Shown here one piece after another: positions 5,459 through 58,534 of a stretch of 64,000 nucleotides of DNA. A program made the position numbers and the translations under genes. The stretch comes from Octopus sinensis (lineage: Eukaryota), in assembly GCF_006345805.1 (NCBI RefSeq), contig NC_043012.1, positions 992,001 to 1,056,000 on the forward strand, in the 5' to 3' direction. Under the pieces are notes generated by a model. The model worked only from the letters and a program-made list of their open reading frames with translations, made no database searches and was not told where the DNA came from. The number at the start of each line of letters is the position of its first letter. Position 1 is the first letter of the stretch.

Positions 5459-5558
5459 NNNNNNNNNNNNNNNNNNNNNNNNNNNNNNNNNNNNNNNNNN
5501 NNNNNNNNNNNNNNNNNNNNNNNNNNNNNNNNNNNNNNNNNNNNNNNNNNNNNNNNNN
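5459..5558. other. Assembly gap (100 N)
   Basis: Run of exactly 100 N, a typical placeholder of unknown true size. Confidence 0.99.
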
Positions 5559-8330: not shown

Positions 8331-8366
<36 letters not shown>

Positions 8367-9970
8367 TTAACGTCTGTTTTCCATGCTAGCATGGGTTGGA
8401 CGGTTTGACCGGGGTCTGGTAAGCCATGGAGGCTGCACCAGGCTCAAGTCTGGTTTGGCAGTGTTTCTACAGCTGGATGCCCTTTCTAACGCCAACTATT
8501 CCGTGGGTGTAATGGGTGTCTTTTACGTGCCACCGGCATGGGTATCACAACTACAACATCCATAAGATTTTGATTTCGATGTTTATGAACTTGACACAAT
8601 AGGTCTCCTCAAGTACAGCAGGCCGTCCTGCAAGCCATGAACTGACTTCATTTGTCGGGTCTTCGAAGTCACAGCATATCTCCAGAGGTCTCGGTATTTC
8701 GTCATAGCCTCTGTGTGGCTCAATATATAGAGGTCATGCTTGACCACCTCGTCCCATGTCTTCCTGGGTCTACCTCTACCCCGGATTCCTTCAACAGTTT
8801 AGGAGTGACACTTCTTCACACATCTCTCCTCATCCATCTGTAGTACATGACCATACCATTTGTCAATCTCCAGTTTCTGCATCTCCCACCAGATAAGGGA
8901 TCGGGTGACCCTGTCAAAGGCTTTCTCCAAGTCCACAAAAGCTAAGTATAGGGGTTTATCTTTAGCTAGGTATTTCTCCTGCAGTTGTCGAACCATGAAT
9001 ATGGCATCAGTGGTGCTTCTACCCAGCACAAAACCGAACTGCATCTCATCTAAGCAAACTCTCTCCCTGATGAGATGGGCTATGACCCTCTCCATGACCT
9101 TCATTACCTGATCCACCAGTTTGATACCCTGTAGTTATTTCTATCTAGAGCATCACCTTTACCCTTGTAGCAGTTGACGATGGTGCTGCTATGCCAGTCA
9201 TTGTGTATGACTCTGGTTTACAATGTGGGTGACTAGCCCACACCACCAGATGTTTTAAGCATCTCAGCAGTGATTCCTGATGGGCCGGGGGCTTTTCCTA
9301 GCTTCATACCCTTAATTACCTCAACTACTACGGAGCTATCTACTAGGTCAACATTTGGCAGGCTCTCCTCCTCCCATTCATTCTCAACATTCAGCAGTCT
9401 TTCATAGTGGCTTCTCCAAGCCTCTTTCTTTTCAGAATCACTAAAAGCAAGTGCCCCATCATCCATTCGAACACTTTTCTCTCCTGTGACATCACAATTT
9501 TCTCTCACACACTGTCTTGCAATCCGAAATACCTCAGTTCTTTGGTCCTCACGTCTCTGGACGTTGGCAAACTGCTACTTTTCCGCTTCGCTCTTGGCTA
9601 TGTATACCTGCTGCCCAGCCTCCCTTCTGGCTACTTGGTACCGTTCCCTGCTACCCCCATCCTTCCAGGCTTTCCAAGCCTGTTTCTTTGCCCTAAAGGC
9701 TTTGTCTACCATACTATTCCACCACCACGTAAATCTATGTCTGGAAGGGACTTTGCACCAGCCACAGACTTGGTCTGTGGCACTCAGTAAGCTGTCCCGT
9801 AGGAATTTCCAGCTACCTTCTATGTCCGATGTCCGTAGCTCCTCCTCCCTCTCCTCAAATTTCTTGATGCGGATGTCCCTAAATCTCTGACCATGTGAAG
9901 GGTTCTTTAGCCTCCAAATCCTTCTTTTGTGGATTGGTTTGCTTCTTGGAATCCTTCTAGCATCGACACT
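8330..9970 (-). mobile_element. 5'-truncated, internally deleted RTE-clade LINE (reverse transcriptase pseudogene) with intact 3' UTR and (GAT)n tail
   Basis: KAPGPSGITAEMLK; QFGFVLGRSTTDAIFMVRQLQEKY; LAFVDLEKAFDRV; C-terminal WYGHV...GRGRPRKTW; stops and frameshifts; ends in family-B tail. Confidence 0.92.
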
Positions 9971-45005: not shown

Positions 45006-45364
45006 CAGTCTGCCTTTCACTGTCTTCCTTTTCGCCAGGGCATCCAACCATAGAAACCATGCCGAATCAGACAGGAACCTGGTACAGCTTTTCATCTTGC
45101 CACTTCCAGTCAAACCATCGAAAGCAGACCCTAAATGATGGTGGTGATGATGATGATGGTGATGAATTATCCACCTCAATAGCTGGTCCCTCTTTTGGGT
45201 ATACATCAACCAGGAGTCCACCAAGGTTTTTGTTCTAGCTCTATGTTATTTATTATACTTCCATGTATCTTTCATTGTCAACAGACATTTGCAATAGTAG
45301 TTCCAAGACTATTGCTTCTATTATGCAACTTATGTGTGTGTATGTGTGAATATATATATATTAT

Positions 45365-45544: not shown

Positions 45545-45618
<74 letters not shown>

Positions 45619-45790
45619 CATGCATATTATATATATATACATATACATATATATATATATTTATATTTACTGAGATCTCCCTTTTAGTAGAAAGAATAGC
45701 TATAACTCTTTGACTGCTATTTCTAAATTCGGTGTGTGGTGAGGCAAATCGTTGCTAAACCCATAATTACTATATATATATATATATATA

Positions 45791-46993
45791 TATCATCATC
45801 ATCATCATCATCATCGTTTAACGTCCGTTTTCCGCACTAGCACGGGTTGGACGGTTTCGACCGGGGTCTGGGGAGCTCGGGACTGCCCCAGGCTCCAGTC
45901 TAGTCTGGCAGTGTTTCTACAGCTGGATGCCCTTCCTAACGCCAACCACTCCGCGAGTGTAGTGGGTGCTTTTTACGTGCCACCTGCACAGGTGCCAGAG
46001 GGGTCTGGCATCGGCCACGTTCGGATGGTGCTTTTTATGTGGGGGGGGGTGCAGAAATATAGGGGAGCACCAGTGGGGAGGGGTGGTTCAGAGAAATGAT
46101 GACAGGTTCTAGGCAAGTAGAACGTAGGATATCGAGAGAGGGGTAATGCATGGTGAAATAGCGTATTGAAGAAGGGGGTTCGAAGAGTAGACACCTATAA
46201 TGGTGGTGGGAGAAGCGACATCCGGTATAGATGGAGCAAAATATAGAGATATCCGGTACTGGTGGTGGGGGTGGGAGGGCGGGCGCAATAATAATAATAA
46301 GGCTTGCAAAAACAATGAAAAGAGGAAACATTTCATTGTTTTTGCAAGCCTTATTATTATTGTTGTCTTTCGTCTCAAATGCTAGCTGAAGCATAAAAAC
46401 TTTCACTCACAAAAACTTATTCACACCACCGCAAAGCATTTCATCTCAACCCTGTCTTCTTTCTGCTGCCTAAAACCTCATCTCCCAATGCGCGGATAGC
46501 CCGCCCTCCCACCCCCACCACCAGTACCGGATATCTCTATATTTTGCTCCATCTATACCGGATGTCGCTTCTCCCACCACCATTATAGGTGTCTACTCTT
46601 CGAACCCCCCTCTTCAATACGCTATTTCACCATGCATTACCCCTCTCTCGATATCCTACGTTCTACTTGCCTAGAACCTGTCATCATTTCTCTGAACCAC
46701 CCCTCCCCACTGGTGCTCCCCTATATTTCTGCACCCCCCCCCCACATAAAAAGCACCATCCGAACGTGGCCGATGCCAGACCCCTCTGGCACCTGTGCAG
46801 GTGGCACGTAAAAAAACACCCACTACACTCGCGGAGTGGTTGGCGTTAGGAAGGGCATCCAGCTGTAGAAACACTGCCAGACTAGACTGGAGCCTGGGGC
46901 AGTCCCGAGCTCCCAGACCCCGGTCGAAACCGTCCAACCCGTGCTAGCGCGGAAAACGGACGTTAAACGATGATGATGATGATGATGATGATA
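45791..46993. repeat. ~1.2-kb near-perfect palindrome with RTE-type tails at both outer ends
   Basis: Arms 45791-46284 and 46499-46993 differ at only a few positions; spacer contains a perfect 31-bp hairpin. Confidence 0.95.
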
Positions 46994-47793
46994 TATAATA
47001 AATATAATATATATATTATATATATATGTATGTATATGTGTGTGTCTATGTGTCTGCTCATGTTTGCATATATAGTAACTTCATTAGTTCTTTTGTACAC
47101 ATATACGTACATATCTATATATTTTTACATATATATATATATAAAAAATATATAAACTGAGTGTTTTTTTCTTCTGATTAGTTTACTATGTTTGAGTGAT
47201 GAAACAATTATTCTAATTTTAGGGCTTTATATGGTTTTATACACACAAACATACACGCACACACACTAACACATACATACATACATATATATATATATAT
47301 ATGTGTATATGTATATAAATGTAAATATATGTATGTGCATGTATATGCATATTAAATGATGATGATGATGATGATGATATGTGTGTGTGTGTGTGTGTGT
47401 GTGTATATTGTATATGTTTTCTAAAAGCGCAATTATGCTACTTCTCTTCTTTGCAATATGAAATTCATTTCCTCGATGTGTTTTTTTTCCTTCCATGATT
47501 TTCCAATCATTCAATTTTCTAATTTTCCTTCAGATGTCAAACAATCTGTTATCTAATCAACTTCAATCAGTTAATTTTCTATAACAAACATTTCTAATCC
47601 CAGCCATTTTGTGGACTTATATATATCAAGTCTGGCACACACACACGCACACTTCTCAATCACAAATATATTTACTCCAGTATATATATATATATATATT
47701 TATATATAGAGGGCATTATACATACATGCCAGAAGGCATTATACATAAATGCCTAAATTCCTTATTAAGTAGTTGTCCTTAATTGCTAAATTT

Positions 47794-57137: not shown

Positions 57138-57865
57138 TCTTTAGTCAAACAAATCACCCCCAGGACTTATTCTTTGCAAGTCTAGTACTAATTCTATCGG
57201 TCTCTTTTACCGAACCACTAAGTTTCAGGGACGTAAACATACCCACATCAGATGTCAAGTGATGGTGGTGGCGGGGGACAAACACAGACGCACAAATACA
57301 TAAAACCTACATACATCATCATCATCATCATTTAACGTCCGCTTTCCTTGCTAGCATGGGTTGGACGGTTCAACTGGGGTCTGGGAAGCCAGAAGGCTGC
57401 ACCAGGCCCAGGCTGATCTGGCAGTGTTTCTACAGCTGGATGCCCTTCCTAACGCCAACCACTCCGTGAGTGTAGCGGGTGCTTTTTACATGCCACCAGC
57501 ACGGAGACCAGACGGAGCTGGCAACGGCCACGGTCGGATGGTGCTTTTTACGTGCCACCGGCACGGAGCTTCTTTCAGTTTCCATCCACCAAATCCACTC
57601 ACAAGGCTTTGGTTGGACCAAGGCTATAGTAGAAAACACTTGCCCAAGATGCCCTGCAGTGGGACTGAACCCGGAACCATGTGGTTGGGAAGCAATCTTT
57701 TTACCACACAGGGCTTCCTCCAGGTTCTGCCTACCAAATCCACTGACAAGGCTCTGGTCAGCCTGAGGCTATAGCAGAAGATATTTAGCCAAGGTACCAT
57801 ACAGTAGGACTGAACCTGGAGCCATTTGGTTGAGAAACAAGCTTCTTACCACACAACCATACCTG
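57138..57865 (-). mobile_element. Family A SINE interrupted by a family B insertion (57315-57566), with a duplicated head region
   Basis: A 3' half 57138-57300, B copy, A 5' half 57567-57710, second A 5' half 57711-57865. Confidence 0.82.
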
Positions 57866-58534
57866 CATCTATAGATATCAATGTTTGTATAACATATCTT
57901 GTCTTTAAGTCATCAACCTTCTGCTATTTTGGTTCGTTTTTCTTCTGTTTTTGTTTGTTTTGTTTTACATTTAATCAGATACATGAATATTTATTTATGT
58001 ACATGATTGCTTATGTATCATTGCAAGCAATTCTTGCATGATGGCCACCAGTGTGACAACGGGACGGTAGTCCTGTACTCATATTACAAACTGACTTAAT
58101 CAACTGGTTTATATAATGCAATTAAGGCAGGCATCAAATTTAATCCAACGTTTTCAGTTTCTCTCGTTCATAATCCAACACCACTTGCAGTATTATCAAA
58201 CTATCCTCATTTCTCATTAGCATTCACGCAATCAAAGCTACTAAACTGTCCTAACATCCTTATAAATTGTTCGTTAACTATTTATGTAATCATCTCAAAA
58301 GTGCATGTCCCTCTTTGATTATTGTCCAAACAGAACAAAAACTAAGTCTCCCCCAACTCCAACGTTTATCACAAAATAATTGTTTACGCAGCACAAATAA
58401 AGGTTTATAGCTAAATAATATTGTTGTATAAAAGCAGATAATAAAAATGCCAGCAGATATGGGTTTGCTGAGATAAATTGTTGGATATACAAGAAATATA
58501 TACATACATACAAACATATATATATATATTCTTT

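Follow-up and report, generated by a model that had tools for sequence, protein, structure and literature searches.

The window examined here (the whole 64-kb stretch of DNA that was analysed, Octopus sinensis NC_043012.1, G000:C16:992001-1056000 in an assembly of 2.72 Gb and 13,516 contigs) contains a palindrome whose inverted arms, 45787-46284 and 46499-46997, are 98.8% identical over 500 alignment columns. From left to right, the locus consists of the following features, given in window coordinates:

45666-45771, + strand: neighbouring repeat end outside the palindrome, a 106-nt 5'-truncated end of a young high-copy repeat that stops at (TA)n
45772-45791, no strand: left (TA)n flank, read directly from the sequence
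45792-45815, - strand: (GAT)8 tail of the left copy, (ATC)8 on the + strand, mirroring 46969-46992
45816-46041, - strand: left copy, part equal to the 3' UTR of the partner LINE, corresponding to 'family B' SINE body and tail
46042-46287, - strand: left copy, part related to the LINE 5' UTR, 97-98% identical to other places
46288-46289, no strand: private junction of the left copy, with a gap of about 161 nt relative to usual family sequence; the 34-mer across it occurs once in the genome
46290-46330, - strand: left copy, 41 nt of the array unit (left stem and loop), unit positions 20-60 at 100% identity
46331-46498, + strand: right copy, 5'-truncated array unit including the right stem 46331-46361
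46499-46742, + strand: right copy, part related to the LINE 5' UTR, with blocks colinear with the 5' UTR of LINE copy L040
46743-46968, + strand: right copy, part equal to the 3' UTR of the partner LINE (L040, 88.9% over 252 nt)
46969-46992, + strand: (GAT)8 tail of the right copy, read directly from the sequence
46993-47035, no strand: right TA-rich microsatellite flank, read directly from the sequence

The arm length is 498 nt, and repeat finding breaks the arm pair into four blocks of 99-100% identity. When the arm sequences were aligned, they differed in six columns, representing three substitutions and three length differences in homopolymer runs. An outward-facing (GAT)8 closes each arm: the right one occupies 46969-46992, the left one, in complementary form, 45792-45815. 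Between the arms, a 214-nt spacer (46285-46498) holds a perfect 31-bp stem (46290-46320 / 46331-46361) closed by a 10-nt loop (46321-46330). A preliminary description of the locus had already reported the two nearly identical inverted arms with outward (GAT)n, the spacer with its perfect stem and loop, and CpG-intact arms, and all three observations were confirmed. The observed/expected CpG ratio is 0.72 and 0.75 in the arms versus 0.43 in the window, so the label 'CpG-intact' is a fair one; older tail copies in the window range from 0.21 to 0.63. If the palindrome is transcribed, its RNA is predicted to be a long dsRNA; the fold predicted for a single strand is one long hairpin of -1140 kcal/mol.

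Several other retroelement sequences were detected in the vicinity. The repeat end at 45666-45771, which terminates in TTAATTAC, yielded 998 candidates genome-wide, and the 40 candidates scored were 98-99% identical to it. In loci L090-L092 this repeat continues upstream into other sequence, with (TA)n following next in two of the three (L090 and L091), and its copies form close inverted pairs in several places. An older SINE-tail copy is located near the palindrome at about 45037-45158. On the other side, positions 47341-47380 within a TA-rich region represent a short remnant resembling the last bases of the LINE tail followed by (GAT)8, possibly an extremely 5'-truncated insertion. The right flank beyond the microsatellite (47040-47260) had a single full-length match in the genome.

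The sequence of the arms belongs to a dispersed repeat family. The outer ~250 nt of each arm have seven other copies of at least 195 nt in the 64-kb window, at 73-87% identity, and the left copy segment 45816-46041 was aligned with these seven. The inner ~250 nt had been described as not found elsewhere in the window. No other copy was indeed present there, but genome-wide this part proved to be a high-copy repeat: a query with 46036-46498 returned 1321 candidates, the 40 scored being 97-98% identical. A normal copy of the family is composed of a 5' tandem array, ~250 nt related to the LINE 5' UTR, ~250 nt shared with 'family B', and (GAT)n. The array unit is ~338 bp long, each unit carrying a (CT)n run, and the periods reported by TRF were 316-361. 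The spacer of the palindrome is a piece of this array unit. The right half (46331-46997) forms one alignment block with 12 other places at 92-98% identity and is truncated inside an array unit, and the left half joins unit positions 60-20 to positions 8-506 of the family's 3' part.

In 20 other distinct places (21 rows, one place being represented twice), the 5' ends of the family lie at differing points of the array. Variable 5' ends combined with intact 3' ends are the pattern seen after target-primed reverse transcription. The 3' flank begins with ATA in 15 of the 21 distinct family places, and about nine places lie in plain (TA)n. The flanks of the palindrome are likewise (TA)n or TA-rich, and any target-site duplication merges there with the microsatellite. 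A marker 34-mer of the family, in its version with A, was found in 257 places, i.e. roughly one per 10 Mb of the 2.72-Gb assembly.

In the sample of 40 places designated L044-L083, the 3' ~500 nt of the family together with the marker region were also found in sister subfamilies possessing another 5' part; in L083, this other 5' part contains a repeat of about 370 nt not shared with the family. An 80-nt internal duplication of positions 259-339 was present in several copies of the same sample. In the part of PMC13282606 that was covered, the family is not named.

A broken 3' end of the partner LINE is present in the window itself, on the minus strand at 8341-9134: RVT_1 at 8799-9134 (E 3e-10) is followed by the end of the coding sequence and then by the family B tail. 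The two halves of this stretch match separately in the genome, so this copy is internally deleted or chimeric. Among its relatives in the genome are copies whose open frames are about 1100 aa long. One of them, L040 (G000:C1:67690000-67698000, minus strand), is an apparently intact LINE whose 1118-aa frame is the sole one to reach 200 aa within 8 kb, and which encodes Exo_endo_phos, RVT_1 and a weak PHD-like finger after the reverse transcriptase. This element is inserted in (TA)n, its 5' UTR contains tandem repeats of about 34 nt, and its 3' UTR is ~250 nt long and followed by (GAT)8. Judged by its architecture (one ORF for both AP endonuclease and reverse transcriptase without an ORF1, and a short 3' UTR ending in a simple repeat), the partner LINE fits the RTE type. 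The earlier designation of the arm ends as an RTE tail thus held in this architectural sense, the tail being the 3' UTR of a single-ORF AP endonuclease/reverse transcriptase LINE that ends in (GAT)8.

The arm tail is 88.9% identical to the 3' UTR of L040 over 252 nt, beginning 6 nt past the end of the ORF, with (GAT)8 terminating each of the two sequences. The arm's inner 250 nt correspond to the L040 5' UTR in colinear, diverged blocks of 66-80% identity. From the identity of the 3' UTR and the colinearity of the 5' UTR, the arms' family can be recognized as an ORF-less derivative with both LINE ends; it is a young, high-copy derivative of an RTE-type LINE. A shared 3' end and dispersed 5'-truncated copies were both found, as is characteristic of a non-autonomous retroposon, in this case one that would depend on the RTE-type LINE. 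As for 'family B', the sequence upstream of its copy at 57314-57900 of the window (minus strand) contains a tRNA-like B-box motif, and family B is therefore probably a tRNA-headed SINE carrying the tail of the partner LINE.

ORF-less LINE derivatives that retain the 5' and 3' ends exist elsewhere, as do composites with a variable tandem array, for example SVA. The arms' family is similar to such SVA-type composites in its variable array, LINE remnants, simple-repeat tail, lack of an ORF and 5' truncation; it departs from them in its octopus-type LINE partner and in its ~338-bp unit with a (CT)n run inside, both specific to this genome.

To describe the centre of the palindrome, we compared it with a normal array unit in copy L022. 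The right copy begins exactly at the right stem, at 46331, and differs from usual family sequence by i) a private 24-nt deletion directly after 46361, and ii) a private 3-nt change at 46496-46498, whereas the left inner end (46285-46287) keeps the usual family letters at the corresponding place. The left copy, running on the minus strand, begins 10 nt further 5' than the right one. These 10 nt are the loop; at 10 of 10 positions they agree with the bases that precede the stem in normal units, and the right copy lacks them. As the left 5' end extends 10 nt further in the array unit than the right one, the stem and loop thus represent the overlap of two copies. Past the stem, the left copy jumps to the start of the part derived from the 5' UTR, leaving out about 161 nt, and the right half holds 137 nt without counterpart in the left half. 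Each half contains authentic family sequence missing from the other, so neither of them, as it stands, copies the other. Three exact patterns, one spanning the 3-nt change and another the 24-nt deletion of the right copy, and the third the jump in the left copy, were each found a single time in the 2.72-Gb assembly.

Besides the anatomy of the centre, we considered how closely the two arms are related. The version of the marker 34-mer with G at 46524 (and at the mirror position) was found in three places, namely the two arms and the C719 copy. The possibility that C719 represents an alternative haplotype of the locus was rejected, for it is a normal copy at a different locus, 96.6-97.1% identical to the arms. 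An alignment of 53 copies shows 3 substitutions between the arms in 475 positions, versus a mean of 2.6% for 400 random pairs; no variant seen in at most one other copy was shared by 385 of about 400 random pairs (co-located pairs excluded). Sharing a variant that occurs at only 3 of 260 places, the arms are sisters. They are, however, 98.7% alike (gaps counted, alignment of the arm sequences) versus 99.1% for each arm and its best other family copy. The two halves thus descend from one source as sisters, without being freshly identical.

The preliminary description had also raised the question of whether the palindrome recurs as a unit. Genome searches with arm and spacer retrieved high-copy family sequence, while the palindromic arrangement was single, pointing to a local event. 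Two-tailed copies were absent from all 20 other family places, and no inverted partner was detected in 36 copies of at least 90% identity, obtained from 40 places sampled in list order. Similarly, no opposite-strand neighbour was present within 5 kb among 100 listed of the 257 marker places. At least two same-strand pairs of markers, 975 and 1123 nt apart, were found among these 100. These two pairs are tandem sister-subfamily copies with common private variants, in L083 (3484-3989 and 4459-4961) and in L084 (1725 and 2849 onward); in L083, (TA)n lies between the tandem copies and the second copy is 5'-truncated. It follows from the private variants held in common that a single source has more than once given two copies at the same TA tract, in these cases in tandem. 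Another irregular 5' end was observed in L006 (2523-2762; G000:C12, around 23174959-23175198), where a 240-nt inverted array segment with an 11-nt hairpin loop abuts (TA)n. This looks like the product of twin priming or self-priming.

Two apparent further cases were discarded. L003 is a normal copy inside a pre-existing AT-rich palindrome and not a second two-tailed case; its flanks 1184-1267 and 2699-2782 are 84-nt inverted repeats of 96% identity, and the sequence that separates the upstream one from the 5' end of the element is itself palindromic. In L071, the opposite tail 960 nt from the copy belongs to a separate truncated LINE past an N gap. Each of the junctions that define the palindrome being single in the genome, we regard it as a by-product of a known process, single and moderately young, and not as a new kind of mobile element.

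Other identities were considered as well. At the gathering score, Rfam gave nothing in the window. No hammerhead was found to E = 10 in 45600-47200, nor to E = 1 in the full array-bearing copy L022 (5200-7320). A Penelope element or hammerhead retrozyme was rejected on the grounds that neither hammerhead nor pLTR is present and that the partner is an AP-endonuclease LINE. A microRNA or hairpin RNA gene was likewise rejected for the 31-bp stem, the best miRNA families scoring 39-41 bits versus gathering scores of 72-211.

The earlier suggestion that the locus is a fold-back or template-switch product survived in part, in that this class of explanation is still the best one. Within it, we favour, with slightly less than even confidence, the reading that the palindrome represents two sister copies of the ORF-less RTE derivative, joined head to head in (TA)n by one compound insertion primed on both target strands. 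The sequence (TA)n is identical on both strands and could therefore offer an endonuclease site on each of them. Priming at each target 3' end would then use a family RNA tail, with one source gene for both ends, and the two cDNAs would grow toward each other until both stopped within one array unit. Blunt joining of the cDNA ends, 10 nt apart in family coordinates, would yield the 31-bp stem and the 10-nt loop. The central deletions and the 3-nt change might be ascribed either to error-prone joining at birth or to later trimming of the palindrome centre.

Several observations speak for this compound insertion. Both halves are ordinary 5'-truncated family copies, each with its own (GAT)8 tail and with family sequence absent from the other, and the rare G variant is common to them. 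The family tail is common to a LINE encoding endonuclease and reverse transcriptase, and many copies, as well as L040, are located at TA-rich sites. Furthermore, L006, L083 and L084 show that the family has produced irregular 5' ends and double copies elsewhere too. The scheme also matches the interpretation given to opposite-orientation L1 insertions in the relevant passages of PMC11702581. On the other side, the features normally expected of one event are lacking: the central joint has neither microhomology nor filler, and (TA)n makes a target-site duplication unreadable. The three private rearrangements within the central ~220 nt are not predicted by the model. Tails of eight repeats each and a neat hairpin fit self-priming or DNA fold-back at least as well, and for either arm the best-matching other family copy is at least as similar as the opposite arm. 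Finally, the locus is an insertion hot spot, with the older SINE copy, the repeat end and the tail remnant described above, and two separate hits are therefore conceivable.

An unlikely competitor is a later inverted duplication of the right copy at the DNA level, by template switching during replication or by break repair, aided by (TA)n and followed by remodelling of the centre. The (TA)n present at both ends is able to pair with either strand, and the sister relationship of the arms would be accounted for. Palindrome centres are unstable and central rearrangements are typical of them, as seen here. However, the left copy has 10 nt of family sequence missing from the right, so the present right copy cannot have served as the template for the left one. 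In addition, the arms stop exactly at the element tails with no non-(TA) flank duplicated, and the switch point is without microhomology.

Rather improbable, in our view, is a self-primed cDNA. Starting at the left flank, such a cDNA would have turned back through a 10-nt loop and used its own strand as template as far as the tail and (TA)n, the centre of the resulting perfect palindrome being trimmed later. This would agree with a perfect stem whose loop belongs to one copy, with (GAT)8 at both tails and with the rare variant common to both arms. The 5' end of L006 displays the same type of joint with its 11-nt loop, and junction palindromes of Penelope elements are read in this way in the pertinent part of PMC3846280. 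Nevertheless, at least three later private changes in the centre would be needed (the 161-nt deletion on the left, the 24-nt deletion and the 3-nt replacement on the right). Nor are there priming base pairs at the fold-back: the letters upstream of the loop, taken as cDNA, mismatch the start of the right stem.

We assign a small probability to an assembly artefact, arising from a chimeric or fold-back long read or from a wrong join of repeats. Homopolymer-length differences are typical of long-read sequencing errors, and three of the six arm differences are of this type; the left flank is itself a high-copy repeat, and all three defining junctions are single in the assembly. The palindrome is nevertheless asymmetric, with 137 extra nt in one half and 10 in the other. 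Its arms stop exactly at the tails between unlike sequences on the two sides, the right one being single-copy, whereas a read with a missed adapter would have mirrored the flank too. The nearest gap, the only one in the window, is 40 kb away (5459-5558). Short-read contigs and reads matching 45650-47150 were short repeat-derived pieces alone and one raw read, in a search by 31-letter words that is uninformative in repeats. For 46262-46372, no listed contig piece extended across 46330/46331, which with words of this length neither supports nor refutes the junction.

Still smaller is the chance of two unrelated successive insertions, the second copy having entered the upstream (TA)n by coincidence in opposite orientation and the remaining (TA)n having been lost. 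It is true that (TA)n tracts are hit repeatedly, that three other retroelement remnants are present within 2.4 kb, and that tandem pairs with (TA)n between the copies exist elsewhere. Against this, the marker has about 260 places in the 2.72-Gb assembly, the arms of the palindrome make up two of the only three that carry the G variant, and no (TA)n separates the 5' ends of its halves, unlike in L083. The last proposal, made in the preliminary description, of a two-ended fold-back retroposon moving as a palindromic unit, is hardly credible: despite a complete LINE-type tail on both ends, the three defining junctions occur once each, none of the 20 and of the 36 other copies is two-tailed, and no inverted neighbour was found within 5 kb of the 100 listed marker places, so that this candidate new class is refuted for this assembly, which contains no such family.

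Other systems in which two strands of a target take part offer points of comparison. Twin priming, the 5' inversion of L1 reportedly set out by Ostertag and Kazazian in 2001, uses the second target strand as a primer and produces an inverted 5' part, similar to that of L006. It joins adjacent, non-overlapping parts of the RNA and leaves one tail, whereas the halves of the palindrome cover the same ~530 nt and have two tails. The same RNA region in both halves together with two tails excludes classical twin priming, and an L1-type twin-priming inversion was rejected accordingly, as the halves overlap over 498 plus 31 nt with a tail on each.

A closer parallel is provided by double insertions of L1 in opposite orientation. 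In the portion of Mendez-Dorantes et al. (PMC11702581) dealing with them, these are read as ligation of opposite DNA ends, each of which had been extended by reverse transcription; as in the palindrome, two cDNAs are anchored by their tails at the target ends and joined head to head. Bridges carrying two poly(A) tails, with which the compound insertion likewise agrees, are described in the corresponding section of bioRxiv 10.1101/2024.08.27.596794. The L1 cases covered in that part of PMC11702581 arose in cultured or tumour cells, their two parts deriving from separate RNAs or sitting on translocation bridges. The palindrome differs from them in representing one source and the same 500-nt element twice, in a germline genome, at a (TA)n target and with an RTE-type element instead of L1. 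In the covered part of PMC12016303, no passage on insertions with two tails was found.

Penelope-like elements bearing an endonuclease resemble the palindrome in another respect. According to the relevant section of Arkhipova et al. 2013 (PMC3846280), they form inverted, 5'-truncated head-to-head repeats with a small palindrome at the junction, as is also the case here, and palindromes at inverted junctions are taken there as traces of self-priming. In Penelope, however, the partner enzyme is GIY-YIG and the inverted form is the rule, while the palindrome has an AP-endonuclease LINE as partner and is a single locus.

As regards its wider meaning, the arms' family demonstrates how LINE ends can be reused without an ORF, in the form of a tandem array, a remnant of the LINE 5' UTR and the LINE 3' UTR. 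The locus itself represents a clean natural LINE-type insertion with a complete tail at both target ends, an outcome so far mainly known for L1 in cell culture and tumours and, as a rule, for Penelope elements. It is possible, although doubtful, that self-complementary (TA)n lets RTE-type machinery start insertion on both strands at once, and that elements are occasionally born as two-tailed perfect hairpins. If this were true, such births would parallel the Penelope footprint on the side of LINEs and provide a ready supply of long dsRNA in a heavily RNA-editing animal. Should priming on both strands of palindromic microsatellites be real, the symmetry of the target would be linked to the outcome of insertion, and some of the long hairpins in cephalopod genomes would be accounted for.
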